Source: Patescibacteria group bacterium
GTDB lineage: Bacteria; Patescibacteriota; Microgenomatia; UBA8517
DNA: 64,000 nt
Reading direction: 5' to 3'
Assembly (NCBI GenBank): GCA_035291665.1
Contig: DATDRP010000003.1
Span: 20,549 to 84,548, forward strand
The position numbers and the translations under genes were made by a program. The notes beneath the pieces were generated by a model. It was not told the DNA's origin, did not search any database, and saw nothing but the letters and a program-made list of their open reading frames with translations. Below, piece by piece: positions 594-50,938 of the stretch (position 1 is its first letter; each line of letters opens with the position of its first letter).

Positions 594-3500
594 ATGAAAT
601 TTAATATAAAAGATAAAAAGACAGGTTTAATGGTTTCTCTGATCGCAGCGGCTGTAGTTATTCTCGTAATTTCGTTTATTGTGGTAAAGGGACCAAAAAA
701 GAATGAAGAAATTACATTTGAAAATACTGGGAATAAAACACTTGTCATAAACATCGACAAAAACCAATATCTTCCTGGTGAAGAGGTCTATATCCAAATG
801 GCTTCTCTTGACGATCAGGGAAACACTCTTTGCAACAGCAAGCTCGAAATAGTTATAACCAACAACCTACAACCTACCCCCTACAACCTACCCCCTACAA
901 CCTACAACCTGTCTGTATTCCCCTCTACGACCTGTAGTCCTGACAATAACGTTACCAATAGTCCTGATTATTATGCTTATTTCATTCCCAAAGATATTGG
1001 AATTTATAAGATAACACTCAAAAACATTGACACTGGCAACACTGTAAAAACTGAATTTGAAGTGAGAGATAATCCGCCGGATCTGTCCGTCACTCGTTGG
1101 AGTGCAACCCGTATCAATCCTTCCAAATCCAGCCGTTATCCGATGGTGATAACTGTAACAGCAAACGAGGACTTCATAGGTACAATATCCGATACAATTC
1201 CTGAATCATACAGCTTTGCTTGGACAGGACCGGGAAAAGTTGAAGGGAACTCAATCACTTGGGAAGCGAAATTAAAAAAAGGCGAAAAAACCGAACTTAA
1301 ATATGAATACATACCCGAAAAAGTAAGCCCAAAATTATTTACAATCGGCCCGATTATTACCAGTAAACCACAAAACATTACTAACAACTTACAACTTACA
1401 ACCTACAACTCGACATGGTATATCGCATCTGACTCCGTTATAACCAGCAAAACCACCGGTGGTGATTGGAACGTCGGAGGCTCATGGGTTGGTGAAGTTG
1501 CACCTGGGACGGGAGATTCGGCGGTGATTGCTACAACCGGCGCAAGTACCATCGTTTTAACAAGCAGTCCGACTGTTTTGGCATTAACTATTAATAGTGG
1601 TTCTATTCTCACCAATAATTCCACCGCTCAAACTCTCACACTGACCACCACTTCTGTAACACCTCTTACCAACAGTGGAACATTTACACCGAGCACATAT
1701 ATAACAATTGTTGTCAACGGAGCCGCCGCCATAAACCCAGTACTTTCTGGGACTTGGACCGGCAGTAGTTCTTTTTATAACCTGGAATTCAGACCGGCTC
1801 TCGGAACAACAGCCAGAACTTACACGATGGGTACCGCTTTTACGGTTAACGGAAACATGATCCTTTATCCCACCACAAGCTCAGAAAGAGCTCTTACTGT
1901 TACCCTGAGCGGTACATCGACTGTGGTCGGAACAACCACGCTCAACGGTACCGGATGTAATGACGCCGGAGATAGCACTTCCGGCTCTTCAGTTCTTAAT
2001 ACCAACGCGCAAACTTTTTCTTCCGGAAAAATCGATATCAAAGAAAACGCTGAATTTTGTATACTTACAGGAAGCGCTGCTACAATTACCTTAACAGGCA
2101 CTTCCGGGACACTTTTAACTAATCCAAATGCCGGTTCTTTTACACAATCCACTTCTACCATCAATGTTACAAGCACCTCCGGCCCGGTACAGTTATTTTC
2201 AGCTGCTGAAACTATCTATAACCTAACCATCAATTCCTCCTCGGCAACCACTGTTGTCAACTCAGGTGCAACACCGACATTTGCATCCAGCGGTGCTTTG
2301 ACTATTACTTCAGGAGTTTTGAATTTTGATACAGGAGTAACAGGTCCGGGAAACAGTACCCTAACAATCGGAGCTTCTGGAACACTGTGTCTGGGTGGAA
2401 CTGCCGCTGCAACAAACACCAGTGTAACCTGCAATACCGGAGCCACCTCAACTTCTGCGATCCTAATGCCATCTTTTACAACTTACACTTTTGACGCATC
2501 ATCAACTGTTATTTTTCTTTCAGATATTGACCTAACCGCAGCAAATGTAATTTCCCGGATAGCCGGTAATAGCTACGGCAATCTCTATCTTTATCCTACA
2601 TTTGTCACAACATCGCGCGCATATACTTTTGAAACAGGAACTTTAAGTATTGCCGGTAACTTTACGATTAATCCAAACGAATCGGGCGCGGGTTCTCCTG
2701 TTCTAACAGTAAACTTGGGCGGAACAACCACCATTGCAGCTGGAAAAACTACCACAATTACTGCAACAAACAGTGCCGCCTCCAACTTAAACCAAGCCGC
2801 CAATACCAACACACTTTCTTCAGGGAAAATAGATATTGCTACAAAGGGAACACTCACTGCTATTACAACAGGCACTATTACTCTCACCGCCACATCAGGT
2901 ACCCTTTTTACCCGTGATACAAGCGGCTCTCCAGGAACTTTTACACAAGCTTCTTCAACTATTTCTGTAACCTCAGCCTCAGGTCCGGTACAACTGTTCT
3001 CTTCCACTAATACTATATATAGTTTGACAATTAATTCAGCTGCGGCAACTACTGTTGTCAACTCAGGTGCAACACCGACATTTGCATCCGGCGGAGCTCT
3101 GACTGTCACATCAGGAGTTTTGAATTTTGATACAGGAGTGACAGGTCCGGGAAACAGTACTCTTACAATCGGAGCTTCTGGAACGATGTGTCTGGGTGGA
3201 ACTTTGGCTGCAACAAACACCAGTGTAACCTGCAATACCGGAGCAACATCAACAACAGCTATCCCAATGCCATCATTCACAACATATACATTTGATGCAG
3301 CTTCAAAAGTAATTTATCTATCGGATGCAGATCTCACCGCAGGTAACGTAATCTCAAGATTGGCTGGTGGAAGCTACGGCAATCTCTACCTCTATCCAAC
3401 ATTTGTCACAACATCCCGCTCCTACACTCTCGAAACCGGAACTGTCGGCATAGCCGGAGATTTAATTATTAACCCTGATGAATCGGGTGCGGGTTCTCCA

Positions 3501-5537
3501 GTTCTAACAGTAAACTTGGGTGGAACAACCACCATCGCAGCCGGAAAAACTACCACAATTACTGCAACACACAGTGCTTCATCCATACTTGATGTCAATC
3601 CCGGTTCCAGTTATGACTTCTCAACAGGACTCTTGGTAACCGGTACCGGAGGTACATTAGACGCAACCAGTGCTTCCTCAACAATCACATTAACAGGAAC
3701 ATCAGGTACGCTATTTTCAAATAGCGGAACTTTTACAATAACCAGCGGAACTCCGACCGTATCAGTTACCGGAGGGACCGGAACAACCTTAAACTCAGGA
3801 ACGATCACTTTTTATAATTTAACAATCTCACCATCAGGAACAAGTACAATCAATGCTTTTACAGACGATTTAACGGTCACAAATACCTTAAATGTCGCCA
3901 CTGGCGACACATTTTCCCTACCTTCAGGTCAAGATCTGACTCATTCCGGTGCAACTCTGACCTTAGACGGAACAATTTCAGGGTCCGGCAGGTACATTTA
4001 CCAAAGCGCTACTGCTTTTCCGGCAACCGGAGTTATAAGTTCCGTTCTTCGTATGGACTCAACCAACAATGACCAAACTATGTCAGGGACACAAACGTAC
4101 GGAGGTAATGTTGAAATCTATAACAACTCAACTTCTGCCCGAGTCATTACATTAGGTACAGCCGGAAGCCAAACTCTGACTTACAGCGGCGATGTCACTT
4201 TAAATGCGGCAAATAGCGGAAGCGTCAGCTTAACTGCTTCAGCTACCTATAATCCGGCCGTAACAATATCAACCGGAAATCTCGCGGGCACTGCTGGAAA
4301 CGGAACTGAAAATATTACAACCGGGACTGGAACCTGGATCGTGGGTGGAAGCGTTGATCTGACAAATGTCGGAACATTCACGGCTACAGGTGGGACTTTC
4401 CAAATGAACGGTGCGAGTAAAACTTTGACTTCCTCGGGTAAGTCTTTTAACAATTATTCCGTAACGGGCGGATCCGTCCAGTTTGCCGATACAACCGATA
4501 TCGACGCCGATCTTGCTATAACATCAGGAACTTTGGATTTGAACGGACAAACAATTACAATTGGAGGCAGTTTTGATAATGACGCTGCAATGTCCCACAA
4601 CAATGCTTCTGTTACTTTCAATGCCGCATCCGGAGCCAAAACTATCGATGCCGACGGAACGGGGGCCGATGCTTTTTACGATATAACTTTTGACCAGGGA
4701 ACATCTGCTTCATGGCAGATAACCGGAGCGCTTGATGCTGACCATAATTTTACGATTACCGACGGGACTGTTGACGCCAATGCTCTCGCTATCAATGTCG
4801 GAAACAATTGGGCCAACAGTGGAGGAACCTTTACTTCAAATTCAAATGTCGTTACGATGGATGCGCAGGATGCCGGTAATACTTTAACCGGTACAATGAC
4901 GGGGACCTCGTCTTTCTATGATCTGGTTTTCAACGACGGAGGTAGTTCCGGCGCTTGGTCTTTCGCCGCCAATTCTGCAACAATTACTCATGATTTTACT
5001 ATAACAGCTGGAGTTGTTACTGCTCCTTCTACAACTCTCACCATTGGTGAAGATTTCAGGAATAATGAAGCAACAGGGTCTTTTGTTAATAACTCCGGAA
5101 CGGTAACTTTTAATACAACTAACCCATCCTATCTTTTATATGCAGCCACAACCACCTTTTACCATCTTATTATTTCAACAGCAACCAAGCAGGTATATTT
5201 TGAAGATACCGACGGAGTCGTCACCGATATCAATGGCAGTCTTACGATACAAGGAACTGATTGTGATATTAATCGGGTTTTCTTAAACTCGAATCTGGAT
5301 GATGAGGATTGGGAAATTGATGCCACTGATGCGGGTTTCGGCAATGTTGATATAGATTATGCCGACGTTGAAGACTCAACAGCCAACGGAGATCAGATAA
5401 CGGCCAATAATTCGACTGCAGACAATTTGGGAAACACAAATTGGAGTATCGTTGCCGGTGCATGCAATCCGGTGACTCCCAATCAACCGAATGTTCGTGG
5501 TAATCTTAAAATTAAAGGAGGGGTAAGGATTCTCTGA
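594..5537 (+). CDS. Giant (1647 aa) secreted/surface protein with N-terminal signal-anchor and T/S/G-rich parallel beta-helix-like repeats (adhesin-like)
   Basis: Long ORF with an N-terminal hydrophobic helix (LMVSLIAAAVVILVISFIVV). Repetitive 'TLTGTSGTL...VNSGATPTFAS...GVLNFDTGVTGPGNSTLTIGASG' units typical of beta-helix adhesins. Contains an internal 267-aa tandem duplication. Confidence 0.6.
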   Translation: MKFNIKDKKTGLMVSLIAAAVVILVISFIVVKGPKKNEEITFENTGNKTLVINIDKNQYLPGEEVYIQMASLDDQGNTLCNSKLEIVITNNLQPTPYNLPPTTYNLSVFPSTTCSPDNNVTNSPDYYAYFIPKDIGIYKITLKNIDTGNTVKTEFEVRDNPPDLSVTRWSATRINPSKSSRYPMVITVTANEDFIGTISDTIPESYSFAWTGPGKVEGNSITWEAKLKKGEKTELKYEYIPEKVSPKLFTIGPIITSKPQNITNNLQLTTYNSTWYIASDSVITSKTTGGDWNVGGSWVGEVAPGTGDSAVIATTGASTIVLTSSPTVLALTINSGSILTNNSTAQTLTLTTTSVTPLTNSGTFTPSTYITIVVNGAAAINPVLSGTWTGSSSFYNLEFRPALGTTARTYTMGTAFTVNGNMILYPTTSSERALTVTLSGTSTVVGTTTLNGTGCNDAGDSTSGSSVLNTNAQTFSSGKIDIKENAEFCILTGSAATITLTGTSGTLLTNPNAGSFTQSTSTINVTSTSGPVQLFSAAETIYNLTINSSSATTVVNSGATPTFASSGALTITSGVLNFDTGVTGPGNSTLTIGASGTLCLGGTAAATNTSVTCNTGATSTSAILMPSFTTYTFDASSTVIFLSDIDLTAANVISRIAGNSYGNLYLYPTFVTTSRAYTFETGTLSIAGNFTINPNESGAGSPVLTVNLGGTTTIAAGKTTTITATNSAASNLNQAANTNTLSSGKIDIATKGTLTAITTGTITLTATSGTLFTRDTSGSPGTFTQASSTISVTSASGPVQLFSSTNTIYSLTINSAAATTVVNSGATPTFASGGALTVTSGVLNFDTGVTGPGNSTLTIGASGTMCLGGTLAATNTSVTCNTGATSTTAIPMPSFTTYTFDAASKVIYLSDADLTAGNVISRLAGGSYGNLYLYPTFVTTSRSYTLETGTVGIAGDLIINPDESGAGSPVLTVNLGGTTTIAAGKTTTITATHSASSILDVNPGSSYDFSTGLLVTGTGGTLDATSASSTITLTGTSGTLFSNSGTFTITSGTPTVSVTGGTGTTLNSGTITFYNLTISPSGTSTINAFTDDLTVTNTLNVATGDTFSLPSGQDLTHSGATLTLDGTISGSGRYIYQSATAFPATGVISSVLRMDSTNNDQTMSGTQTYGGNVEIYNNSTSARVITLGTAGSQTLTYSGDVTLNAANSGSVSLTASATYNPAVTISTGNLAGTAGNGTENITTGTGTWIVGGSVDLTNVGTFTATGGTFQMNGASKTLTSSGKSFNNYSVTGGSVQFADTTDIDADLAITSGTLDLNGQTITIGGSFDNDAAMSHNNASVTFNAASGAKTIDADGTGADAFYDITFDQGTSASWQITGALDADHNFTITDGTVDANALAINVGNNWANSGGTFTSNSNVVTMDAQDAGNTLTGTMTGTSSFYDLVFNDGGSSGAWSFAANSATITHDFTITAGVVTAPSTTLTIGEDFRNNEATGSFVNNSGTVTFNTTNPSYLLYAATTTFYHLIISTATKQVYFEDTDGVVTDINGSLTIQGTDCDINRVFLNSNLDDEDWEIDATDAGFGNVDIDYADVEDSTANGDQITANNSTADNLGNTNWSIVAGACNPVTPNQPNVRGNLKIKGGVRIL
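2020..3620 (+). repeat. Internal tandem duplication, 2 x 801 bp (~85-90% identical), inside the 594..5537 CDS
   Basis: Copy 1 'ggaaaaatcgatatc' at 2032 and copy 2 'gggaaaatagatatt' at 2833. 'caatcggagcttctggaac' occurs at 2365 and 3166. The period of 801 is a multiple of 3, and substitutions are of all types. Confidence 0.8.
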
Positions 5538-5656
5538 TTTTGTAATAAAATGAAAAATTAATGATAATTCAAAACTTAAAATATGATTTACACAGATAAA
5601 AAGCGGATTAACACGGATAATTATAAATTGACCTAATTACCTAATTGATCTAAATA

Positions 5657-6016
5657 ATGAACCAGGCACCAAGTAAAAACAAATACAACCTGGAGGAAAG
5701 AACAGCCAAGTTCGGTGAGATGATAATCGAACTTTGTAAAAAGATACCTAAAAATGTCATTACTATTCCGATCATTAATCAATTAATCAAGTGTGCAACT
5801 AGTATTGGAGCGAATTACTGTGAAGCTGATGACGCGGAAAGCAAGAAAGATTTCAAACATAAGATCGGTATCTGTAAAAAGGAATCCAGAGAATCCAAAT
5901 TCTTTTTAAGGATGCTGGCAAAAGCAGTTCCTGAATTTAAAGAAGAGATCAAGTCACTCTGGCAAGAAGCAAAAGAAATCAATCTGATATTTAATTCGAT
6001 TTATAAAAAGGTTTAG
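5657..6016 (+). CDS. Four-helix-bundle protein (23S rRNA intervening-sequence protein / Avd-like family)
   Basis: 119 aa. 'SIGANYCEADDAESKKDFKHKIGICKKESRESKFFLRML' matches the family pattern (SIxxNIAEG ... DF ... KE ... E ... YWL). Flanked by short inverted repeats (5628-5650, 6048-6072). Confidence 0.7.
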   Translation: MNQAPSKNKYNLEERTAKFGEMIIELCKKIPKNVITIPIINQLIKCATSIGANYCEADDAESKKDFKHKIGICKKESRESKFFLRMLAKAVPEFKEEIKSLWQEAKEINLIFNSIYKKV

Positions 6017-6047
6017 TCATTGTATATTGGAGTTTGGGGTTTGTTTT

Positions 6048-6072
6048 GAAATTAGGTCAATTAGGTTAATTA
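6048..6072. repeat. 25-bp element AAATTAGGTCAATTAGGTTAATTAG; perfect inverted copy at 14140-14165, related inverted copy at 5628-5650
   Basis: Reverse complement = CTAATTAACCTAATTGACCTAATTT, which is identical to 14140-14164. The 5628-5650 copy 'TTGACCTAATTACCTAATTGATC' shares ACCTAATTGA. Confidence 0.8.
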
Positions 6073-6087
6073 GAAATTCACAAAGGT

Positions 6088-9000
6088 ATGATAAAAAGAA
6101 TATTTAATGGTATAAGAAGAGGACGAAGAACAAGATTAATTCTTGCTGGTTTACTAATTTTCATCGTTCTTCCCTTTGCAATTAATACCCTACTGAATAT
6201 CAATTCTCAAGGAGTACGGGCTGATACATTCCTCAAATTTGATGAAGGGTATGGGACAAGCTCAGCAGTTAACGACAGTAATGGTGCTGTTTCAGCCGGT
6301 TCAATAACGGGCGGCACCTGGAAAACGGAAGATCTTTGTTTTGACGGGAAGTGTCTTTACTTTGACGGTAACGGGGATTTTGTCTCTTTTGCCGATGATG
6401 CTGATCTTGATTTTGCCGGTTCCGATTCCTTCTCCCTCATGGGTTGGTTCAGACATGCTCCTTTTACACCCTCCGTTGATATCGACCACGAAACCGGAGA
6501 CACCAGCCAATATACTTCCCTCACCGACCCCGATAGTGATCTTTCCGTTACCGCCGCAGCTGCCCAAAACGGCACCAATTACGGCCTGGCAGTCCAGATC
6601 GATGACACGACGGCTACTTACGGTAGAAAAGACATTACCGCCAACACCAGCGGAATCGCCAGGTATAGTTTCTATTTCGATATCAATAATTTAACAATGT
6701 CAGAGGCTGGTGATGAATTTACGTTTGCAAATATATACAATAGCGGTGTAAACTCTACTTCCTTTGTAAATGTCAAACGATTTTCCGGAGTTTACACACT
6801 TCGAGCTGCTATAGTAGATGATGCCGGTGCTGCCTCTTACACGAGCTACTACACTATTACAGATGCACCCCATTATGTTGAAGTCGAATTAAAGCGGGCT
6901 TCAACTGTTTCATCCAGTGACGGTACTGTGCAATTATGGATCGACGGGGTTGCCCAAGAAACCAAGACCGGCGTAGACAATTACGACCGGTTTAACGATT
7001 TTTGGTCAGTCCGCCTGGGAGCAGTTAGCAGTATAGACGCCGGTACCTCCGGCACCTTTTATGTTGATGAGCTGGAAATATTCACCGGCACACCGCAGGC
7101 AATTCTCGCTAAATACGAAGCTACCGAAGTTGAAGGTGGCTACAAGGTATATCTTGAAAACAACGGTCGGTTGGACTGCGGGATCGACAATGAAAACACT
7201 TACTTCCCCTCGGATTCTGCCTCTACCAACTCCTCCAACTACGATGACAACCGCTGGCATCACTTCGCCTGTGTCAAAAACGGTACCACTTCCTTAACTT
7301 TGTATTCTGACGGAAACCGGGTCGGATTGGACGATTCCATTACCTCATCCACTCTGGAAAATAACAATCTTTTTTATATCGGAATAGACGGCGACGGCGC
7401 AGCCAATGATTACCAGGGTTTTATTGATGAAGTTAAAATTTATAGAAGTGCCAAAACCGCGACTGAAGTCAAAGGCGATTATGTCAAAGGCTCAACTCTC
7501 GGAGAAACCTCCGCATCATTTCTTAAAGACCAATCCCCTCTTTCCGACGGCCTGGTAGGATATTGGAAAATGGATGAAGCTTCAGGTGATGCCGCTGATT
7601 CATCCGGAAATGGAGTTACCTTAACTAATCAAAGTACCGTTTCATACGTAGGAGGAAAATTCGGAAATAGTATTGATCTTGTTCCCGCTTCGACAGATTA
7701 TTTCTCAACTGCGACAGACATAAACGGCATCCAGTCCATTTCCTTTTGGGTATATCCCGATGATGTAACGGCCAATTACTTTATCAGTTATTCCGACACA
7801 GTCTATATCAGCGTTTCCTCCGGAACATTAGCCGCCAACGGCTTTACCGGCACTTTTTATGTCAATGGTAAAGCTTCTACTACTCTGGCTGTCTCAACCT
7901 GGCAATTAGTTACTGTCACATTCGCTTCTATAAATGCCGCAGATACGTACGTTGGTCGTGTAGGTACTACTGCAAATTATATGGATGGAAGAATCGATGA
8001 AGTCCGCTTCTATACCCGGGCACTCTCCCCCGGTGAAATCACCAATCTATACAATTGGGCTCCGGGACCTATAGCTGAATTGAAATTTGATGAAGGAACG
8101 GGAGAAACTCTCTATGATTCTTCGGGCAATGGTTATTCTGCAAGCGCCATAAACGGAAATACCTGGGTCCAGGGAAAATACAGCAAAGGTATATGGTTTG
8201 ACGGATCTGCCGATTATATAAACGTTTCAACCGGTTTTGGAACATTTTCTCCATCCGGAGCTACTTCCATCTCTGCCTGGGTAAATTCAGAGGTTACCGA
8301 TTCTGCAAGACATATGATCTTATCTCTTACCGGTACTAATACCATTTTTGTAATGAATATCGAAGAAAACAATAACCGCTGGCTTGCCCAATCTGGAAAA
8401 GCCGGGGTTGGCGGTGATGATTGCAGTGGTACCGATGTAATCACCAATGGAACTTGGTATCACGTAACCGGTGTTTTTGCAGACAATAAGATCAAGCTTT
8501 ATGTCAATGGAAGTTTGGTAAACACCTGCGATTATAATTTCTCTCTATCTGCTTCAGACAGCACTAATACCTGGCATATCGGCAATTACGAAGAAAACAG
8601 CAGTCTCTATTACTACTGGAAAGGTATCATCGACAATCCTAAAGTTTATAACTACGCCCGGACGCAAGCGCAAATCATCGAAGACATGAATGCCGGCCAT
8701 CCGGCACCGGGATCCCCGATAGGTTCTTCTGTTGCCCACTGGAAGTTTGATGAGGGCGGATTGGATATGTGCTCAGGACTGACCAACGATTTCTGCGATT
8801 CATCCCTCAACGCAAATGATCTGGCATTTTCTACCACCACCGGTGGATTTACCAATTCCGGTAAATTCGGCAGAGCCTTTAACGGTGACGGGGCAGTCTG
8901 GGCTTCCCGAGCCGATGACTCTGACTTTGACGTTGGTACCGACAGTTTTACCATTTCCTTTTGGATGAAATCCGATAATTCCGGAGGCAGTGGCACCCAA

Positions 9001-10860
9001 TACATCGTCAATCGGGCTAGCGCCACCATCGCTGGGTTTGGTGTCTATGGCAATTCATCAGGCAATATCGTTTTTGGGGTGGATGATGATACTTCCTGGG
9101 GACCGGACGCAACTGTCACCACCACCTCCAATCTGTACAATCAGTCCTGGCATAATATTGTCGCTGTCAAAACCACCACTTCCAAACTGGAAATCTATGT
9201 TGACGGAGTATTGAATAACCAGTCGACAGCCAGTATCCCCACTGGATCTCTCAGTAACGACCTCACTATTTACCTTATGGACCGGGACGGGGCTAACAAT
9301 GGCGACGAATTCATCGGTGATCTGGACGAAACTCAAATTTTTCTTTCCGCCTTGACTGCAGATCAGGTTAAAGTTCTATATAACCAAGGCTCAGCAGTTG
9401 TCTGGGGAGCAACGTCCACCGATTCCTCCGGCAACGCCAGCTGGTCCTCCACAAACGAGTATTGCCCCCCCGGCCAGGGTTCAACTTGCACCGCCCCGAT
9501 TGTCGAATGGAATTTTGATGAAAATACGGGCCAATATGTCTACGACATTTCCGGAAACAATGTTTGGGGTTGCCTTGAAGATGCCAATTGCAGTAGTCCC
9601 ACTGTCGGAACTGAGGATCCGAAATGGTTTCCGGGAAAAATTGGTTCAGCCTTATCTTTTGACGATACGGATGATGCCGTTTTTATTCCTGATAACGCCA
9701 CTATTGATATTGGCACATCCGACTTTTCGATCGAAGCCTGGATATATCTGAATGATTACAGCTCTGCAACAGACGATATGATACTAAACAAAAGAGAAAC
9801 TGGAATAGGTGACTCCTGTACATCGGCGGCTGCCAACGGCTATGCAATAGTTATCTACACTACCGACGAGCTAGCAGTAGACGTATGTGCTAACCCCAAT
9901 GGTTGGGAAATGTACTCGGCAGCCCAGGCACTTCCAGCTGGCGGCTGGCATCATGTTGTTGCTGTTATTAACCGCACTACCTCCACAAATAGTCTAATCT
10001 ATCTTGACGGAATGTCACTTAGCGTTATACGTACAGGAACCATGCCTACTGCAACAATAGCCAACACTTATAATATTTTTCTTGGAGCTCAATATGGCAA
10101 TGGAGACCTGGATTTTAATGGCAAGATCGATCAGATGAAAATCTATAATTACATCCGCACCCCCGCCCAAGTCGCCTGGGATTATAACCGGGGCAAATCA
10201 ACAGGTTGGTGGAAAATGGACGAAAATACCGGAACAACAACAAATGACTCAAGCGGAAATGCTTATCACTCCCAAACATTTAACGGTGCGACTACCTGGA
10301 CAACCGGTAAATACAATACCGCATTGACTTTTGATGGTACCGACGACAATGTCAGAATCACAGAAGGGACAAAAATTGATTTGGGAGCAACCACGGATAA
10401 CTATTCTGTCTCAGCTTGGTTTAAAACGACTACTAACTACACAACGAACCCCGGTGCGATAGTTGCCAAAGATGACGGATCAGGAGTTTACCCCTTCAGC
10501 CTGCAGGTAAATACCTCCGAACAACCCTGCATAGTTATGAATGACGGCTCTGCCCGTACTCTTTGCGGAACATCAACTGTCAATGACGGAAACTGGCATT
10601 TTATTACAGGTGTAAGAGATGTTTCGGGTGATACTACCACCCTTTACATTGACGCCATCAGGGTCAATTACCAAACCGATCCAACAACTGCAACCATGGT
10701 AAATGATGACAATGTCTCCATTGGAAATTCAGGTGCGGGAAGCTATCTCACTAATGATTTCAACGGTCAAATCGACGACGTTAAACTGTGGAATTATGCA
10801 TTAACCATTCAACAAATCAGAACTGAATATACCGGCGGGACGCTGAAATTCGGACCCTGA
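6088..10860 (+). CDS. Giant (1590 aa) secreted multi-LamG (concanavalin-A-like lectin/glucanase fold) repeat protein
   Basis: N-terminal signal-anchor (LILAGLLIFIVLPFAI). At least six repeats of the jelly-roll signature 'G-x-IDEVKIY/IW-x-x-AL-x-x-x-Q/E-I/V' (GFIDEVKIYRSAKTATEV, GRIDEVRFYTRALSPGEI, GDLDETQIFLSALTADQV, GKIDQMKIYNYIRTPAQV, GQIDDVKLWNYALTIQQI). Confidence 0.65.
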   Translation: MIKRIFNGIRRGRRTRLILAGLLIFIVLPFAINTLLNINSQGVRADTFLKFDEGYGTSSAVNDSNGAVSAGSITGGTWKTEDLCFDGKCLYFDGNGDFVSFADDADLDFAGSDSFSLMGWFRHAPFTPSVDIDHETGDTSQYTSLTDPDSDLSVTAAAAQNGTNYGLAVQIDDTTATYGRKDITANTSGIARYSFYFDINNLTMSEAGDEFTFANIYNSGVNSTSFVNVKRFSGVYTLRAAIVDDAGAASYTSYYTITDAPHYVEVELKRASTVSSSDGTVQLWIDGVAQETKTGVDNYDRFNDFWSVRLGAVSSIDAGTSGTFYVDELEIFTGTPQAILAKYEATEVEGGYKVYLENNGRLDCGIDNENTYFPSDSASTNSSNYDDNRWHHFACVKNGTTSLTLYSDGNRVGLDDSITSSTLENNNLFYIGIDGDGAANDYQGFIDEVKIYRSAKTATEVKGDYVKGSTLGETSASFLKDQSPLSDGLVGYWKMDEASGDAADSSGNGVTLTNQSTVSYVGGKFGNSIDLVPASTDYFSTATDINGIQSISFWVYPDDVTANYFISYSDTVYISVSSGTLAANGFTGTFYVNGKASTTLAVSTWQLVTVTFASINAADTYVGRVGTTANYMDGRIDEVRFYTRALSPGEITNLYNWAPGPIAELKFDEGTGETLYDSSGNGYSASAINGNTWVQGKYSKGIWFDGSADYINVSTGFGTFSPSGATSISAWVNSEVTDSARHMILSLTGTNTIFVMNIEENNNRWLAQSGKAGVGGDDCSGTDVITNGTWYHVTGVFADNKIKLYVNGSLVNTCDYNFSLSASDSTNTWHIGNYEENSSLYYYWKGIIDNPKVYNYARTQAQIIEDMNAGHPAPGSPIGSSVAHWKFDEGGLDMCSGLTNDFCDSSLNANDLAFSTTTGGFTNSGKFGRAFNGDGAVWASRADDSDFDVGTDSFTISFWMKSDNSGGSGTQYIVNRASATIAGFGVYGNSSGNIVFGVDDDTSWGPDATVTTTSNLYNQSWHNIVAVKTTTSKLEIYVDGVLNNQSTASIPTGSLSNDLTIYLMDRDGANNGDEFIGDLDETQIFLSALTADQVKVLYNQGSAVVWGATSTDSSGNASWSSTNEYCPPGQGSTCTAPIVEWNFDENTGQYVYDISGNNVWGCLEDANCSSPTVGTEDPKWFPGKIGSALSFDDTDDAVFIPDNATIDIGTSDFSIEAWIYLNDYSSATDDMILNKRETGIGDSCTSAAANGYAIVIYTTDELAVDVCANPNGWEMYSAAQALPAGGWHHVVAVINRTTSTNSLIYLDGMSLSVIRTGTMPTATIANTYNIFLGAQYGNGDLDFNGKIDQMKIYNYIRTPAQVAWDYNRGKSTGWWKMDENTGTTTNDSSGNAYHSQTFNGATTWTTGKYNTALTFDGTDDNVRITEGTKIDLGATTDNYSVSAWFKTTTNYTTNPGAIVAKDDGSGVYPFSLQVNTSEQPCIVMNDGSARTLCGTSTVNDGNWHFITGVRDVSGDTTTLYIDAIRVNYQTDPTTATMVNDDNVSIGNSGAGSYLTNDFNGQIDDVKLWNYALTIQQIRTEYTGGTLKFGP

Positions 10861-14069: not shown

Positions 14070-14139
14070 GAGTAAGAGCTAGAGATAGAGAAAGTGTAAG
14101 TTTAATTCCACTTGCAAGGTGGGCAAATCCTCATAATTT

Positions 14140-14165
14140 CTAATTAACCTAATTGACCTAATTTC
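14140..14165. repeat. Perfect inverted copy of the 25-bp element at 6048-6072
   Basis: 'ctaattaacctaattgacctaatttc' at 14140-14165. Followed (14200-14335) by a 'ggaaattggtaattggatat / tttggaatttggttattgg' module shared with island B and, reverse-complemented, island H. Confidence 0.8.
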
Positions 14166-14338
14166 TGTGTTGGAAACAAGAGAACTTGTTCGACATTAAT
14201 AACCAAGCACCAAAATCCAAATAAATTCAAAATCCACGATTCAAGATGAAAGATTGGAGTTTGGAAATTGGTAATTGGATATCATTTGTAATTTGGAATT
14301 TGGTTATTGGTCATTCGTAAACAATTCGTGATCAGTTA

Positions 14339-16553: not shown

Positions 16554-16786
16554 GATTCATTTTAACAAACAACAAGCTACTAATTAACTGCTAATTTAAA
16601 ATCACTAATTAATACAAATTCCTATTCGTGATAATTCGCGTTTCCCATTAGTGAGTAATTCGTGATTATAATACAATTGCAATTCGTGAACCTAATATCT
16701 TAATATCGAATCACCTAGTATCTTTTTTGGTAATTCGTAGCCAACTCTTGCAATTTATATCTTTTTGGCCTATATAATGACTAAAT

Positions 16787-17799: not shown

Positions 17800-17968
17800 A
17801 AGAAGAGAAAAGATATTGATTGTAAGCGGTAGGAAGTGAGATGTGAGAAGTGAGTTGTGAGTGATGGGTAATTAGTCTTAAGTATCCAGTTGTACGCGGT
17901 AAGTTGTAGGTTGTAGGAAGTGAGTTGTAGTAAATTAGTAGTAATTCGTGATAATAATTCGTGACTAA
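17800..17968. repeat. Composite intergenic repeat island A (GT-rich C-depleted module + AATTCGTGA array)
   Basis: 'ggtaggaagtgagatgtgagaagtgagttgtgagtgatgggtaattag...gtaagttgtaggttgtaggaagtgagttgtag...gtaattcgtgataataattcgtgactaattagtgattcac'. Almost no C on the + strand. Confidence 0.7.
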
Positions 17969-20611: not shown

Positions 20612-20720
20612 TTTCAAGAAAACCACCGAGTCGGACTCGGTGGATGAATTGAATTCTGATATGTCATCCTCCGTTAAAGGAAACCCCCGAGTCGGACTCG
20701 GGGGAGGATGTCATGATATT
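20612..20720 (-). ncRNA. Candidate structured small RNA / RNA element, copy 1 (minus strand), ending in an intrinsic terminator
   Basis: Outer stem ATGACATCCTCC...GGAGGATGTCAT (20661-20672 / 20704-20715) encloses the hairpin CCCCCGAGTC-G-GACTCGGGGG. The 3' hairpin CCACCGAGTC-C-GACTCGGTGG (20623-20643) is followed on the minus strand by TTTTCTTGAA. Second copy at 58480-58598 has compensatory stem changes. Confidence 0.5.
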
Positions 20721-21199: not shown

Positions 21200-21379
21200 A
21201 ACACTGTAACCAAGCAACCGAATTTCCAATTACGTAATTGATCTAATTACTAAATAATTACCAATAACCAAGCATCAAATTACAAATAATAATTAATTTA
21301 CAAATATTAATCAGGTATTAATTGTTAATTTTCTCAATACAGATAGTTTTTTTATTGAAATTTAGTGATTGTAAATTTG

Positions 21380-21583
21380 TTTGGAAATTGGAATTTGGTA
21401 ATTGGATATTTAGGTATTAGGTTGTAGGAAATGGGAAATGAGTAGTGACTAGTGGGAAGTGGGAAATGGAGATAAGCAAGTAGGTTGTAGGAAATTAGTA
21501 GCAATTCGTAGCTAATTGGAAGTATTTCGTGAACTTAATATCTTAATATCGAAGCACATAATATCTAACTGATTCGTGTTTAA
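21380..21583. repeat. Composite repeat island B (TAATTG/GGAAATTGG module, GT-rich module, AATTCGTA array, 33-nt 3' motif)
   Basis: 'ggaaattggaatttggtaattggatat' is shared with 14255-14285. 'ggttgtaggaaatgggaaatgagtagtgactagtgggaagtgggaaatgg'. 'cttaatatcttaatatcgaagcacataatatct' at 21534-21566. Confidence 0.7.
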
Positions 21584-21991: not shown

Positions 21992-22100
21992 GGTTCACTA
22001 ATTTTATACTAATTTTCACTAATTATATTCCATAAAAAACTCGTGATCAATCAATTCGCGTTTTTAATTCGCAATCAATTCGCGATTTAATAATTCGTAG

Positions 22101-24251
22101 CTAATTCGCAGCTCTAGCCAGAGGCAGACTCACCTTAAAAACCGATCCTTTGCCTTCAACCGACTCAAAACCAATTTCCCCTTTCATCTTCTCCACCAAC
22201 ATTTTTGTTATAAAAAGTCCCAAACCGGTTCCTTCAACATCTTCCGTACCTTCGGTTTTTGCCCGAAAGAATTTGCTAAAAACTTTTTTGTGGTCTTTTA
22301 GCGGTATTCCGTATCCCGTATCGGAAATTTCCAAAATAACGTGTTTCCCGGAAACGGCACTCTTTACAACAACCCTTCCTGCTGGTTTATTATATTTAAT
22401 CGCGTTAGAGAGAAGATTTTCCAAAACATCCCTGAGCTTTTGCTCATCTGCTTCGACAATAGCGGATGCAATTTCATAATCCTCATCCAAGATCACTCTT
22501 TTTTCCTGGGCAATTGAGGCAACCTGTGAGACCACGCTTTTTACTGTTGCCATAAAATCCACCTTTGTAAGTTCAAGTTCTATTGTGCCTGATTCAGTTC
22601 TTGCTATTTCCAAAAGATCATCCACAAGATGGTTTAACCTCTGATTGGCTTTCTCGATGGCATCAAAATTCTCCAATGTATCTTTGTCCATCTTTATTTT
22701 CTCGTCTTTTATAAGACTGACAAAACCATTAATTACCGTAACCGGTGTCCGCAGTTCGTGAGTTGCGATAAAGACAAACTCGTCTCTGAGTCGTATAACT
22801 TCCTGTGCTTTTTCGAGTTCGCGCTTTTGCATTTTGCGTAATTCCAGAGTTCGTTCTTCAACTTTTTGCTCAAGTGTGTGGGAAAACTCCTGTATCTTTT
22901 TAAAAGCTTGAGCGTTGGAAAGAGCGACTGCCAACTCAGTTGAAAGAATTTCCAATACTCCCAAATCCTTATCAAAATAAATATCACCGGATTCTTTTTC
23001 TCCCAGAAGTAAATATCCGACAGTTCTTTCGTGAGTAGAGAGTGGCACAAATACCGACACAACGTACTTTCGCATAATTTTTTTAAGTCTCCCTTCCTCC
23101 ATTTCTTCGAAAATTTGCGACCTGCCGCTGGCTGCAAGGTCTTTAAGCTCCGGAAAAGTCGGAAATGAATAATTTGTACTTCTATCACCAAAGACGTCTT
23201 CGATCTTTCGTGCTCCCAGAACGAATATAGCAGCTTTTGAAAAACGCAAGTTTTCCTTGAGAACTGAAAACATGCTTGCGGTCAGATCCTCAAGATCCAA
23301 AGTTGAAGCTAATATCCGGGAAATTTTTTTTAACAACTCATTGGAATGAAAATGTCCTTTGTAAAAAATATTATCTGTTAGGTCTTCGAAAAGCCTCAAA
23401 AGCGGTTGGAAAGAGTATGCGATTATTAAAGCTAATATTGTTGAAGATACAATATTGGAAGTTGACGTTCTTACATTCGTAATATAAGAAGTAATCAGAA
23501 AAAATCCTCCAGCGTAAAGTAAACCCAATGTAATTGCGAGCAATATATATGTTATAGACCGGGCAACTACCAAGCGAATATCCATAAGTCTATGTTTTAG
23601 TATTGCGTACGTAATAATCAAAGCCATTGCGACATTAACAAAAGGTCCGATATAAATAAGTCTGTAATTACCCAATTGAGGCAGGATTACATTCGGTACA
23701 ATGCCAATAACCATAGGGAGCATGCTTGCAAGTAATACATATCTAATTTGGGATCGAATATTACCTTTTAATCTCATCATACCTCTAATAAGAATTACCA
23801 AAGCTGTGTTATAAATAATCCCCAGGTAAATAGCCCAAATAATATAAACCGGACCTAGAATTACAGAATTACCTTGGTCGTCAAGAATAATCCGTTCAAT
23901 CCAGAGATTGGTATTAAAAAGTGGTATAAAAAAAATAAAAGGGACTGTTACCAGCAATATTGTCCAAATTTTTTCAGGAAATTTGCCGTTAACCAAGGTA
24001 TAGGAGAAATAAAAAATCGCAGAAGGAACTATGCTTCCGGAAACATAAATCATCCTACTCCAAAATAAAGCAGGCTCTTGAGTCTTAGATAATCTGAAAA
24101 ATGCAATTGCAAATGCCCAAACAATAACATTTAGGATAAAAACCGAAAATGATAGATTTAATGGATTTTTGGGATTCTTAACAAGAACTACTAAAAAAAC
24201 TGGTATTGATAAAATTCCAGACAATATGAGCGCCAAATCTATGATATTCAT
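22101..24251 (-). CDS. Sensor histidine kinase with N-terminal multi-TM sensor region
   Basis: N-terminal half has ~8-10 TM helices. H-box 'FVFIATHELRTPVTVINGF'. HATPase_c motifs 'ISDTGYGIP...GTGLGLFITKMLVEKMKGEIGFES'. Confidence 0.8.
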   Translation of the reverse strand: MNIIDLALILSGILSIPVFLVVLVKNPKNPLNLSFSVFILNVIVWAFAIAFFRLSKTQEPALFWSRMIYVSGSIVPSAIFYFSYTLVNGKFPEKIWTILLVTVPFIFFIPLFNTNLWIERIILDDQGNSVILGPVYIIWAIYLGIIYNTALVILIRGMMRLKGNIRSQIRYVLLASMLPMVIGIVPNVILPQLGNYRLIYIGPFVNVAMALIITYAILKHRLMDIRLVVARSITYILLAITLGLLYAGGFFLITSYITNVRTSTSNIVSSTILALIIAYSFQPLLRLFEDLTDNIFYKGHFHSNELLKKISRILASTLDLEDLTASMFSVLKENLRFSKAAIFVLGARKIEDVFGDRSTNYSFPTFPELKDLAASGRSQIFEEMEEGRLKKIMRKYVVSVFVPLSTHERTVGYLLLGEKESGDIYFDKDLGVLEILSTELAVALSNAQAFKKIQEFSHTLEQKVEERTLELRKMQKRELEKAQEVIRLRDEFVFIATHELRTPVTVINGFVSLIKDEKIKMDKDTLENFDAIEKANQRLNHLVDDLLEIARTESGTIELELTKVDFMATVKSVVSQVASIAQEKRVILDEDYEIASAIVEADEQKLRDVLENLLSNAIKYNKPAGRVVVKSAVSGKHVILEISDTGYGIPLKDHKKVFSKFFRAKTEGTEDVEGTGLGLFITKMLVEKMKGEIGFESVEGKGSVFKVSLPLARAAN

Positions 24252-28204: not shown

Positions 28205-28594
28205 TCAGCCGGATTTCGACGCCGAACCTAAATATTTTTCAACCAAATCGCCTAATTTTGCTATATCGGTTTTACTTTTAATAAGATAACCGGCGGCACC
28301 TTTTTCCATTGCAAGTTCCGCATCATTTTTCCCGGAAAGATTCGTAAGCATTACGATCGGAATTTTTGCCGTTTTGGGATTGCTTTTTAATTTATCCAAG
28401 ACTTCAATTCCGTCGGGTTCCGGCATCATAATATCAAGGAAAATAAAATCAGGATTTTCTGATTCTGCTTTTTCAAGTCCTTCTTTCCCGCCGATTGCCA
28501 GAACGGTATCATACTTTGCGAACCTGAGGGCTTTTTCATACATTCTTGCCACCAGCTCTTCATCTTCGACTAATAGTACTTTCACCATAATCAC
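28205..28594 (-). CDS. Stand-alone response-regulator receiver (REC) protein
   Basis: 129 aa. 'KVLLVEDEELV...FIFLDIMMPEPDGIEVL...IPIVMLTNLSGKND...GYLIKS'. Confidence 0.8.
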   Translation of the reverse strand: MIMVKVLLVEDEELVARMYEKALRFAKYDTVLAIGGKEGLEKAESENPDFIFLDIMMPEPDGIEVLDKLKSNPKTAKIPIVMLTNLSGKNDAELAMEKGAAGYLIKSKTDIAKLGDLVEKYLGSASKSG

Positions 28595-28654
28595 TAATTA
28601 TACACGAATTAAAATCACTAATTTACTACTAATTACATGCTAATATTAACCTGA

Positions 28655-29056
28655 ATGGCCAAATTAATCTTCCCTAAATTAAGTTATACCATAATGGGAA
28701 TCCTTTTTCAGATTCATGCAAAACTCGGGAATCAATATCAAGAAAAATACTACCAACGAGCATTAGAATCGGCCTTAAAAGAACATGATATAAAATATAA
28801 AAAAGAACTCAAATCGGACTTATTTTATAACGAAGTAAAGATAGGGAAATATTTTCTCGACTTTTTGATTGAAGATAAAATTATATTAGAGTTAAAGACT
28901 AAACCCTTTTTTACTGGTCAGGATATAAGACAGGTTTTAGCTTACTTAAAAGCCAACAATAAACGTTTAGGTATTCTGGCAAATTTTAGAACTGGAAGTC
29001 TCACATATAAAAGAATTATTAATAACCACTACACCCCATTCATAAATAATTCGTGA
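28655..29056 (+). CDS. GxxExxY family protein (PD-(D/E)XK-like fold)
   Basis: 133 aa. 'HAKLGNQYQEKYYQRALESAL...DFLIEDKIILELKT' matches the GxxExxY signature and the downstream D...E.K motif. Gene is flanked by AATTCGTGA-type repeats. Confidence 0.7.
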   Translation: MAKLIFPKLSYTIMGILFQIHAKLGNQYQEKYYQRALESALKEHDIKYKKELKSDLFYNEVKIGKYFLDFLIEDKIILELKTKPFFTGQDIRQVLAYLKANNKRLGILANFRTGSLTYKRIINNHYTPFINNS

Positions 29057-29105
29057 TTCCTATTCGTGAGCAATTCGTGATTTAGTGTATTAAATTCGTA
29101 AGTAA

Positions 29106-40567: not shown

Positions 40568-40576
40568 ATATGAATC

Positions 40577-40987
40577 ATGAATTATGAATTAAGAAGTATG
40601 AAGAAAGAATTAAAGAAAATAAAAAATTTTACGGATTTGAATGTTTGGAAAGAAGCCCACAAACTTGTACTTACCGTGTATAAAATAACTAAGAAATTTC
40701 CTAAAGATGAACAATTCGGCTTGATAAACCAATTAAGACGTGCAGTTGTTTCAATAACATCTAATATTTCAGAAGGATTTAGCAGATATTCTTATAAAGA
40801 AAAGTCCCAATTTTACTTCATGGCACTTGGATCCCTAACGGAAGTTCAGAATCAATTAATAATAGCTAAAGACTTAAAGTACATTACCAGCAATGAATAT
40901 TATCAACTAGAAGAGTTGACTGTTGTTGTAAGTAAATTACTAAACGGTCTTATCAAAGTATCTAAAACTAAAATTCATGATTCGTGA
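40577..40987 (+). CDS. Four-helix-bundle protein (23S rRNA intervening-sequence protein / Avd-like family), second copy
   Basis: 136 aa. 'SITSNISEGFSRYSYKEKSQFYFMALGSLTEVQNQLIIAKDLKYIT' is the family signature. The palindromic motif GAATCATGAATT occurs at both flanks (40571-40582 and, reverse-complemented, 40971-40982). Confidence 0.7.
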   Translation: MNYELRSMKKELKKIKNFTDLNVWKEAHKLVLTVYKITKKFPKDEQFGLINQLRRAVVSITSNISEGFSRYSYKEKSQFYFMALGSLTEVQNQLIIAKDLKYITSNEYYQLEELTVVVSKLLNGLIKVSKTKIHDS

Positions 40988-41040
40988 TTTATTGATGTTT
41001 AATACCATGATTCATAATTCTTGATTCGTGATTCAAATAT

Positions 41041-48921: not shown

Positions 48922-48934
48922 TTTTGTAAATTAG

Positions 48935-49235
48935 AGATAAGAAAAAAAATGGGATGTGGGAAGTGGGTTCTAAGTAATAGGTTGTAAGCAGTAAGTTGTA
49001 GGAGGTAGGTTGTAGGAGATAGGTTATAGGAAAAGAGAAATGAGTTGTGGGAAGAGAAACTGGGAATGAGATGTGAGTTGTGAGTAGTGGGAAATACAGA
49101 TAAGAAATTAGGAATATAGGAATTAAGAAATTTAGAATAAAGAGAATAGAGAAATAGGAAAAATAATTGCGGAAGGGAGATTGATAATTGTAAAATAAAT
49201 CCTATATTAATGGTGTTGTGAAGACTAACGAAGTA
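48935..49235. repeat. Composite repeat island C (modules X and Y)
   Basis: Module X 'gggatgtgggaagtgggttctaagtaataggttgtaagcagtaagttgtagg' and module Y 'gtgggaaatacagataagaaattaggaatataggaattaagaaatttagaataaagagaatagag'. Only ~5 C in ~240 nt on the + strand. Confidence 0.75.
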
Positions 49236-49427
49236 TTACTCAGCTTTTGGATCGGTCGGCTCTTCTTTGACTGCTTTTTCGAATTCACTTTTAGCCTGTT
49301 TTATGCCTTTTGTGGTTTCACCGGCTTTCTTGCCAAGACCTCTGAAAATTGCTCCACCGAAGAATAAAAGTACTACTAAAACGATAATGATAATTTCGGT
49401 CGTTCCGATATTTTGAAGAAATCCCAT
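49236..49427 (-). CDS. tatA: Twin-arginine translocase subunit TatA/E family
   Basis: 63 aa. 'MGFLQNIGTTEIIIIVLVVLLFFGGAIFRGLGKKAGETTKGIKQAKSEF' gives N-terminal TM + FG hinge + amphipathic helix. Flanked on both sides by GT-rich repeat islands. Confidence 0.7.
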   Translation of the reverse strand: MGFLQNIGTTEIIIIVLVVLLFFGGAIFRGLGKKAGETTKGIKQAKSEFEKAVKEEPTDPKAE

Positions 49428-49439
49428 ATTAAAAAATAT

Positions 49440-49900
49440 ATTAATACTAAGATTCCCGAATGTCCAGTAGCAGTTTTACCCCATATTAGTAAAGGGTGAC
49501 AGAAAATTAGATTTAAGTTTAAGTTGTATGTTGTAGGTGATAGGAAGTGAGTAATGAGAAGTGAGATGTGAGAAATAAGAGTTAAGAGGTAGGTTGTAGG
49601 TGGTGGGATGTGGGATGTGAGTGGTGGGAAATACAAATAAGAATTTAGGAATACAGGAATTAAGAGAAAAGAAATGGGATGTTGGAAGTGGGTTTTAAGT
49701 AATAGGTTGTAAGTAGTAAGTTGTGGGAAAAAGGTTGTAGGTTATAGGTTATAGGAGCGAAGTTAGAAATATAGAAATTTAGTATTTTGTTTTAAGTTTT
49801 CAATTGAAGAACATTGGCCATTTAGCATTCGTATCTCGTCTCACGTATCACGTATTACATCGCTTGGTTTGAAAAGTACCGAACTAACAAGATCTCATTG
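49440..49900. repeat. Composite repeat island D (modules Y then X, then 'CGTATCTCGTCTCACGTATCACGTATTAC' module)
   Basis: Y: 'gtgggaaatacaaataagaatttaggaatacaggaattaagag'. X: 'gggatgttggaagtgggttttaagtaataggttgtaagtagtaagttgtggg'. These are the same modules as island C in swapped order. The tail module is shared with island F. Confidence 0.75.
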
Positions 49901-50606: not shown

Positions 50607-50692
50607 CAACCAATAATTAAATCTATATATCTGTTTTTTGGGACTCTTGATCAAACTATAAGAAGAAAGTATGATTAGGAAACAATAAATTT

Positions 50693-50938
50693 ATGTTTTC
50701 CAACATCGGCGTCACTGAAGTTATTATCATCATCTTGGTTCTGACTGTGATTCTCGGCAGTAAGAAAATGGGAGAACTTGCCAGCAATGCCGGACGGGCT
50801 GGCGCTGAGCTAAAAAAAGTCAAAAAGGAATATGAAGCTGCTATGAAAGAATTGGACAAGGAAATCAACGTTGATGATGAAAAAAAAGAAAAATCAGAAA
50901 AGAAAGATTCTTCAGAAAAAAAAGGAGGTGAGCTTTAA
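50693..50938 (+). CDS. Tat translocase subunit, TatB-like (TatA/B family with extended charged tail)
   Basis: 'MFSNIGVTEVIIIILVLTVILGSKKMGELASNAGRAGAELKK' has the TatB-like 'LG' hinge instead of FG. The long K/E-rich C-terminal tail is TatB-like. It overlaps the next tatA by 1 nt (TAATG). Confidence 0.55.
   Translation: MFSNIGVTEVIIIILVLTVILGSKKMGELASNAGRAGAELKKVKKEYEAAMKELDKEINVDDEKKEKSEKKDSSEKKGGEL

Follow-up and report, generated by a model that had tools for sequence, protein, structure and literature searches.

A gene for a 119-amino-acid four-helix-bundle protein lies between inverted repeats (IRs) at positions 5626-6078 of the DNA analysed here, the window, a 64,000-nt stretch (positions 20,549 to 84,548) of contig DATDRP010000003.1 from assembly GCA_035291665.1, a metagenome-assembled genome (MAG) of the Patescibacteria group from the Rifle aquifer. 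We consider it probable, at roughly 60%, that this segment, hereafter cassette 1, is a discrete and horizontally spreading cassette of the same kind as the intervening sequences (IVSs) of 23S rRNA that bear an open reading frame (ORF), that it sits in the stop-to-start junction of two protein-coding genes and that its RNA would be excised from the host transcript. This reading is based on the match to the anatomy of the 23S IVS of Coxiella in size, PF05635 ORF, terminal stem and tandem heptamers. An earlier inspection of the letters (the sequence-only reading below) had described a self-contained small cassette flanked by IRs, a description now borne out by sharp and conserved ends, by relatives that are built alike (p = 4e-22) and by an empty site for a second cassette of the window.

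Anatomy of cassette 1

The cassette 1 protein matches PF05635 (23S_rRNA_IVP; E = 1e-12, 48.6 bits with a cut-off of 33.8) and, with E = 3.5e-19, TIGR02436 (“four helix bundle protein”), which confirms the assignment made from the sequence alone. Its nearest solved structure is 2RLD (E = 3.7e-12), and the protein is basic (pI 9.25). The ends of the element were set against about 40 homologous elements among which the sequence outside is unrelated; the shared termini, 5'-AATT(N1-3)CTAATT... and ...AATTAGAAATT-3', thus fix the window element at the coordinates given above. Its GC content is 0.33, compared to 0.45 in the flanks.

The arms consist of tandem 8-9-nt units of the form (N2-3)CTAATT, which on the 5' side reach up to the ATG, and because of this tandem make-up the IR has alternative pairing registers. 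It includes a perfect 13-nt pair (5626-5638 / 6050-6062), and the flanks are paired in predicted RNA folds, in agreement with the inverted arms noticed earlier; the left-arm string TTGACCTAATTACCTAATTGATC lies exactly where it had been read (5628-5650), while the right-arm string AAATTAGGTCAATTAGGTTAATTAG occupies 6049-6073 and not 6048-6072. Both the minimum free energy (MFE) and the centroid fold predict a flank stem of 13 + 8 bp with a 1-nt bulge. Beyond this 21-bp stem, shorter helices (e.g., 5662-5672 with 6027-6037) extend into the first ~30 nt of the 119-aa ORF, which form an inner 5' arm of CCAGG/CCAAG units, and into 3' untranslated TTTGG units, giving 44 predicted long-range pairs from 5626:6071 to 5685:6017. 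The outer 3' arm has an exact 28-nt inverted copy at 14138-14165.

Given that short degenerate repeats are unusually dense in the intergenic DNA of the window, internal nulls were chosen for the flank IRs. A score of at least 13, the level of cassette 1, occurs in only 1.3% of 1722 unrelated upstream/downstream flank pairs of the same window, and the scores of two further cassettes described below, cassettes 2 and 3, are reached by 0.6% and 0.5% of such pairs. The three highest flank-IR scores of the 43 window genes belong to the four-helix-bundle genes at 5657 and 40577 and to a PDDEXK_3 gene at 28655. A chance by-product of intergenic DNA crowded with short tandem repeats would have some appeal, as such repeats do crowd these regions and the best unrelated flank pair scores 35.5, but it hardly deserves credence against the rarity of the observed score, the first three ranks being held by small cassette genes and the arms that also surround relatives in genomes without such repeat-rich DNA. 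A chance origin of the flank IR was tested and is not supported.

Relatives in other genomes

Scanning one genome per species for relatives of the cassette 1 protein yielded 80 loci with 52-79% amino acid identity, labelled as Patescibacteria (many lineages), Ignavibacterium (complete chromosome CP070637), Melioribacteraceae, Bacteroidales, Gammaproteobacteria, Omnitrophota, Verrucomicrobia, Planctomycetota/Phycisphaerales and Thermodesulfobacteriota. On long contigs the identity is 70% for the Ignavibacterium chromosome, 76% for Saccharibacteria, 69% for Bacteroidetes, 61% for Phycisphaerales and 63% for Gammaproteobacteria, and since several matches come from contigs between 140 kb and 2.8 Mb long, mis-binning does not explain the spread across phyla. 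Clustered at 50% identity, the PF05635 relatives of the gene fall into 6461 groups with E<=1e-3 and 1148 with E<=1e-10; no relatives were found on the viral contigs scanned with all three cassette proteins.

The flanks of these relatives are inverted as well. Among the 72 with complete flanks the median flank-IR score is 14.25, compared to 7.5 in 386 control ORFs of the same loci (Mann-Whitney p = 4e-22), and half of them exceed the 95th percentile of the controls. The units are oriented: CTAATT units are common to about 30 of the 72, and CTAAT occurs 121 times (ATTAG 9 times) in the 100 nt upstream, ATTAG 132 times (CTAAT 18 times) downstream, at a background rate of 0.086 per 100 nt. Remoter relatives carry other arm units, e.g., AAATGAC/ATCCAAA or GAATGAC. 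The number of units in the left arm does not correlate with that in the right arm (rho = 0.23, p = 0.21), and the RNA duplex energy of the flanks does not separate relatives from controls because GC content differs between genomes. In 28 of 29 pairs of relatives dN/dS lies between 0.04 and 0.2, which indicates a functional protein, with dS reaching 0.7-2; synonymous sites are thus saturated while the arm motif persists, so that conservation of the motif exceeds that of synonymous sites. The conservation of the units as sequence, beyond mere pairing, suggests a protein that reads them on DNA or RNA. The GC content of the element is below that of its flanks in 76 of 77 loci and follows that of the host (r = 0.86).

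Some insertions occur at one and the same site in several related MAGs (e.g., loci L045, L047 and L048), and two proteins followed across many samples (P0362 and P0329) were found in the same context only, with no sign of recent transposition. An orientation dictated by single-stranded DNA or the lagging strand, as in IS200/IS605-like elements, was considered and rejected: GC skew is positive on the cassette strand in 51 of 69 and in 23 of 26 loci, and the window shows the opposite. Database proteins of the four-helix-bundle family frequently have N-terminal extensions of 30-60 residues (150-175 aa in total), and many of them are found on contigs of 0.5-3 kb, consistent with start calls placed inside the 5' arm repeats, which are free of stops, and with assemblies that break where an element lies.

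Placement between genes

What recurs is the position of the elements, namely tight stop-to-start junctions of co-directional genes. The relatives fit tightly into the gap between one gene's stop codon and the ATG of the next: the cassette ATG follows the upstream stop after a median of 49 nt, and the cassette stop precedes the next ATG by a median of 95 nt (arms included). The 3' end of the element usually lies 5-20 nt ahead of that ATG. Both neighbours are co-directional for 58 of 66 cassettes, compared to 340 of 478 other genes. None of about 70 relatives resides inside rRNA; all those with flanks lie between ORFs, and their neighbours in other genomes are unrelated genes.

In the window, the ATG of the downstream multi-LamG gene follows 9 nt past the end of cassette 1. 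Scans for promoters and terminators around the cassette gave nothing above shuffled sequences, and nothing resembling a terminator separates the three genes, which fits read-through transcription. The LamG nature of the downstream neighbour had been recognised by the sequence-only reading; its “beta-helix” label for the upstream neighbour could not be confirmed, as the 1647-aa protein has no Pfam match, and there is no usable orthologue of it either (the best shows 37% identity over 65% of the query). The same reading had the gene landing repeatedly between paralogous surface-protein genes. This picture is not supported: the neighbours at the first and second locus are not detectably paralogous, the two cassette proteins lack BLASTP similarity and their arm units differ.

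Cassette 2 and its empty site

The second four-helix-bundle gene of the window, at 40577, is also IR-flanked (40565-40600 / 41006-41041, with ATGAATC / GATTCAT units and 51 predicted long-range RNA pairs from 40578:41035 to 40642:40973). The structure nearest to its product is XCC0516 of Xanthomonas (2GSC, E = 4.8e-18). Since the proteins of cassettes 1 and 2 share no BLASTP similarity and their arm units differ, they represent two separate element lineages; two relatives of cassette 2 with ~76% identity in other contexts (L172 and L182) have the same arm units as cassette 2. IRs are present at the second copy as well as around the relatives of the first.

The junction that holds cassette 2 was compared across genomes by way of orthologues of the downstream 812-aa gene. 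One locus (L090) is empty: TAAtgcaATG joins the orthologue of the upstream 962-aa gene (full-length, 40% identity end to end) to an 807-aa orthologue of the downstream gene, where the window has 473 nt. In a second locus (L089) the same junction is taken up by another four-helix-bundle element (3540-4075 of that locus), which is decayed, with units of GCAAATGA and an ORF split into 79 + 53 aa, and a third locus (L091) has a 47-nt spacer. The junction thus shows presence/absence polymorphism together with independent occupation of one site. The comparison with empty sites proposed earlier therefore succeeded for cassette 2, with one empty and one otherwise occupied junction, and found none for cassette 1.

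A direct repeat, AAATAT, stands at both ends of cassette 2 (40566-40571 and 41035-41040), and removal of the cassette with one copy leaves TAA-ATAT-ATG, a 4-nt spacer like the TAA-tgca-ATG of the empty locus; the repeat is ambiguous and could be a target-site duplication or a mere extension of the IR. The 47-nt spacer of the third locus (L091 4950-5000) contains aattctaac...attaggttaa and could, judged by these letters, be what is left of a CTAATT-type element. In L089, 5 kb downstream of the decayed element, a gene for a Y1 transposase (PF01797) is located at 8769-9407. In L182 (2001-4390), a Levybacteria-type contig, the 76%-identical relative of the cassette 2 protein lies directly upstream of a 1530-aa LamG giant and pilin-like genes precede it, which could be accidental or point to a mild preference for operons of this kind within Microgenomates.

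A second cargo family and ORF-less hairpins

The architecture of an ORF within a foldback is common to a second cargo family, the GxxExxY proteins of the PD-(D/E)XK type, and hairpins built of the same units but lacking an ORF fill intergenic DNA (Table 1). In the window this family is represented by cassette 3, whose IR spans 37 nt at 78% with 33 long-range pairs. For 62 non-identical metagenomic relatives of cassette 3 the median flank-IR score is 16.25, compared to 7.5 in controls (p = 3.5e-18), and 74% exceed the 95th percentile of the controls; their arm units are TACGAAT, CTCTAAT, GCGAAT, TACAAAT or TACAGAT, and they are packed in the same order of stop, element and ATG. Cassette 3 itself stands antiparallel to both of its neighbours (- strand), unlike the usual co-directional placement. 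Solo unit arrays also occur in the window, and clusters of units are found 4 and 10 times where shuffles give 0.7 and 0.6.

Further observations concern the repeats themselves. The string ATTCGTGAT is present 13 times in the window, always on the + strand (0.73 expected; e.g., 14324, 16624, 29049, 31564, 41024 and 53565). Right arms read ATTCGTG and left arms CACTAAT rather than CACGAAT, resulting in a systematic T.C mismatch that is a wobble on neither strand. Degenerate heptamers rich in G (GTGAGAA / GGTTGTA / GTGGGAA) form long arrays that occupy many of the intergenic regions in a single orientation (17823-17956, 21409-21523, 48926-49170, 49518-49790, 52562-52681 and 53322-53434) and are inverted near the right end of the window (59940-60070 and 63886-63930); a CCTACAA complement repeat lies within coding DNA, in the 1647-aa ORF (854-908). 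A conserved motif of ~31-43 nt, TAATATCTTAATATCGAAGCACATAATATCT, stands beside repeat arrays at 16693-16735, 21536-21578 and 52675-52717 and, inverted, at 59882-59926.

Table 1. Cassettes, ORF-less repeat structures and genes adjoining cassette 1, in window coordinates
Feature	Position	Strand	Basis
Cassette 1, CTAATT-type, 453 nt	5626-6078	+	ends from comparison with homologues
5' arm of cassette 1, tandem AATTGAC-CTAATT-AC-CTAATT-GAT-CTAAATA	5626-5656	+	pairs with 6050-6071
Four-helix-bundle gene of cassette 1, 119 aa, PF05635/TIGR02436	5657-6016	+	profile matches
Inner 3' arm of cassette 1, TTGG/TTTGG units	6017-6048	+	MFE pairing with 5649-5685; unit type recurs in homologues
Outer 3' arm of cassette 1, AAATTAGGTC-AATTAGGTT-AATTAG-AAATT	6049-6078	+	read from letters and homologue ends
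Cassette 2, ATGAATC-type, 473 nt between stop and ATG	40568-41040	+	IR and empty orthologous site
Cassette 2 gene	40577 (NCBI start 40598) to 40987	+	PF05635 E=1.6e-38
Cassette 3, GxxExxY / PDDEXK_3 cargo, CACTAATT / AATTCGTG arm units	28590-29113	+	IR and profiles
Cassette 3 gene	28655-29056	+	PF13366 E=5e-28; TIGR04256 98.7 bits
ORF-less arm pair, CTAATT units then CCAAA / TTTGG hairpin	14124-14328	.	fold weak, z=-1.1
ORF-less arm pair, CACTAATT / ATTCGTG type	16580-16662	.	arm units
ORF-less long hairpin, CTAATT/CCAAG and TTTGG units	21225-21420	.	MFE z=-3.3
ORF-less arm pair, CACTAATT / AATTCGCG type	21998-22108	.	arm units
Upstream neighbour of cassette 1, 1647-aa protein	594-5537	+	ORF and Pfam scan, no Pfam match
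Downstream neighbour of cassette 1, 1590-aa multi-LamG protein	6088-10860	+	six Laminin_G_3 stretches

Comparison with known elements

The closest parallel is found in the ORF-bearing 23S rRNA IVSs of Coxiella burnetii, Leptospira, Xanthomonas and Brucella, which like the cassettes measure ~430-480 nt, carry a PF05635 (S23p) ORF in the loop, have complementary termini forming a stem of 20-30 bp and tandem direct repeats of 7-9 nt right before the start codon, lie in sense orientation within the host transcript and show a sporadic distribution suggestive of horizontal transfer. The Coxiella IVS in particular is 428-444 nt long, with a PF05635 ORF in the loop of a 28-bp terminal stem that is cut by RNase III and with tandem heptamers (GACAGAT x3) ahead of the ATG (PMC4990558); the TACAGAT units of some GxxExxY cassettes resemble these heptamers. 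23S_rRNA_IVP ORFs have also been described in insertions of both 16S and 23S rRNA in the Candidate Phyla Radiation (CPR) (PMC11270868). The cassettes differ in that they lie between protein-coding genes and not in helix 25 or 45 of 23S rRNA, and their ORF is under strong purifying selection, whereas that of Coxiella is reported as decaying (PMC4990558). Searches of full-text literature outside subscription journals turned up no account of PF05635 or GxxExxY cassettes that reside in operons between IRs; the conserved ends and the GxxExxY sister family are likewise undescribed there, the coverage consisting only of papers on rRNA IVSs and of scattered mentions of “four helix bundle protein.”

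Other small repeat elements share single traits with the cassettes. The Correia/NEMIS elements of Neisseria are bacterial MITEs (miniature transposable elements with inverted repeats) that are co-transcribed and processed by RNase III, have no ORF, possess simple terminal inverted repeats, duplicate TA and are not known outside a single genus. Like the cassettes they are small intergenic insertions with IRs at their borders, transcribed together with the adjacent genes and folding into hairpins of some length; unlike them, the cassettes have arms made of short-unit arrays, a conserved gene aboard and a family that extends across phyla. As for the traits of MITEs and DNA transposons in general, terminal inverted repeats with sharp ends are present in the CTAATT family, and presence/absence at orthologous sites is seen for cassette 2, not for cassette 1. 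The STRR sequences of cyanobacteria are intergenic arrays of tandem units on the 7-nt scale and in this respect resemble the cassettes, but they have not been described as bracketing these genes. Foldback (FB) transposons, whose terminal inverted repeats are themselves composed of tandem short repeats as in the cassettes, by contrast occur in eukaryotes, are of kilobase scale and have other proteins associated with them. Integron gene cassettes, too, are promoterless small ORFs with imperfect inverted-repeat structures that are co-oriented with the host transcript; they differ by having attC at the 3' end only and by standing in arrays beside an integrase, neither of which is seen here.

Proposed mode of action and alternative explanations

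By analogy with the rRNA IVSs, cassette 1, for which neither promoter nor terminator is predicted, would be read through within the host operon, and its arms would fold in the transcript into the stem of 21 bp and more. RNase III would then cut this stem, as it does experimentally in rRNA IVSs, and free the cassette RNA; the neighbouring genes would stay expressible after the cut, making the insertion tolerable. In this way the cassette RNA would probably be removed from the transcript, leaving the insertion without harm. The units could plausibly be read by the cassette's own pentameric four-helix-bundle protein or by the nuclease of the sister family.

Several observations weigh against this reading. 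The excess of co-directional neighbours is modest (88% vs 71%), and taxonomic labels of MAGs on short contigs can be wrong. A search of metagenome contigs with an exact left flank-N{0,30}-right flank pattern revealed no empty site for cassette 1, the CTAATT family shows no evident target-site duplication (nothing outside AATT), and no recognisable transposase or recombinase is encoded in or beside cassette 1, whose sole ORF is the four-helix-bundle gene; the scanned ORFs of the window contain no transposase domain. With respect to the RNA stem, the arms of an element barely outscore foreign arms (19.1 vs 15.5, p = 2e-4), arm mismatches are G.U in 92 and A.C in 103 cases (p = 0.47), without the signature of selection for a stem in the sense-strand RNA, and the folding energy of whole cassettes is unexceptional (z = -1.1 for 491 nt with cassette 1, and -1.3).

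Part of this evidence would be explained if the arms acted as DNA, that is, as multi-site terminal inverted repeats comparable to those of Tn7, Mu or foldback elements, in a cut-and-paste process with the RNA stem as a by-product. The arms would be bound by the pentamer of the cassette's own four-helix-bundle protein, by the GxxExxY nuclease or by a transposase provided in trans. We regard this as rather unlikely, yet worth serious attention: the unit sequence, and not only its complementarity, is kept across phyla despite saturated synonymous sites, foreign arms pair nearly as well as own ones, the sense strand lacks a G.U bias, one cargo family is a PD-(D/E)XK nuclease, the cassette proteins are basic (pI 9.3-9.7), and the AAATAT at both ends of cassette 2 restores the 4-nt spacer when one copy is removed with the element. 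It has to contend with the lack of a target-site duplication in the CTAATT family and of any known transposase fold, with a cassette strand that follows the neighbours and has a positive GC skew with no lagging-strand bias, and with the precedent of the rRNA IVSs, which concerns RNA processing. That the gene is instead an ordinary resident of its host, vertically inherited and immobile, with hairpins that stabilise the mRNA or control translation, would agree with the strong purifying selection on the protein, with the element GC content that tracks that of the host (r = 0.86) and with the same-site insertions of related MAGs; it is nevertheless improbable in view of relatives with 60-79% amino acid identity scattered over unrelated phyla among unrelated neighbours, the sharp and conserved element ends, the empty orthologous site and the other element in the same junction of another genome, and an element GC content lower than that of the flanks in 76 of 77 loci.

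The sequence-only reading had also drawn a link to diversity-generating retroelements (DGRs), whose accessory protein bAvd is likewise a small basic four-helix-bundle protein; the related structures 2GSC and 2RLD are pentamers (five chains each). It had stated that neither a reverse transcriptase (RT) nor a pair of template and variable repeats (TR/VR) is present, which holds throughout the 64 kb: no RVT domain was detected in the large ORFs scanned, and no TR/VR-like repeat pair exists in the window. The only long direct repeat of the flanking giant genes is internal to the 1647-aa ORF (2137-2436 / 2938-3237, 83%), the remaining ones of the window being degenerate intergenic arrays and response-regulator paralogues. 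The cassette 1 protein does not match the Avd models at all, and that of cassette 2 stays below their cut-offs (31.9 bits for NF033474, cut-off 80; 34.2 bits for PF22296, cut-off 40). To our knowledge, the targets of DGRs have C-type-lectin or Ig folds and not the ConA-like LamG fold. An orphan or remote Avd gene serving adjacent lectin-like surface proteins would account for the fold that PF05635 and bAvd have in common, for the sub-threshold Avd matches and for the large LamG protein downstream, with a relative (L182) that also precedes a LamG giant. We nevertheless judge it very improbable, because no RT was found in the large ORFs and no TR/VR pair in the window, because the Avd cut-offs are missed and because the neighbours are not detectably paralogous here and are unrelated genes at about 70 other loci; the proposed DGR link thus fails.

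Other features of the window

An Rfam scan of the window returned a tRNA (60071-60141, - strand) as the sole match and none at the cassettes. Five stand-alone response-regulator paralogues (20792, 21584, 25237, 25841 and 28205) are interspersed with histidine kinases between 20792 and 28594. Several short candidate ORFs of TatA/E-like appearance, smaller than the threshold of the ORF list, were noticed by eye at 50690-51090 and 51914-52060 and on the - strand at 49220-49430 and 56500-56660 (e.g., MLRGIGTTELLIIAVVLLVLFGGKKLPELGKG). GC-rich hairpin repeats of the type catcctcc...ggaggatg occur at 20640-20720 and 58490-58580, and 1 kb at 57834-58858 is AT-rich and non-coding.

Implications

Since about 1990 it has been an open question what rRNA intervening sequences are and where they come from, and so has the role of the very large PF05635 family. 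It may be that the cassettes described here are the general form and the rRNA IVSs one special case of it. We tentatively speculate, well short of a firm proposal, that both belong to a single class of small, autonomous and mobile elements that spans phyla and whose ends, built of 7-9-nt units, would be read by their own protein (the four-helix-bundle pentamer or the GxxExxY nuclease). These elements would have highly transcribed junctions as their targets, and the ORF-less hairpins and arrays of CPR intergenic DNA, and perhaps the STRRs of cyanobacteria, would be what they leave behind. The finding would account for a class of misannotated N-terminal extensions and for contig breaks in CPR assemblies, as well as for much of the repeat-rich intergenic DNA of the source genome. 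The ORF-plus-foldback design with defined, conserved ends in ordinary operons, which is spread over many phyla, has empty sites and includes a nuclease as second cargo, offers a tractable system in which the questions about IVSs and the PF05635 family can be addressed.

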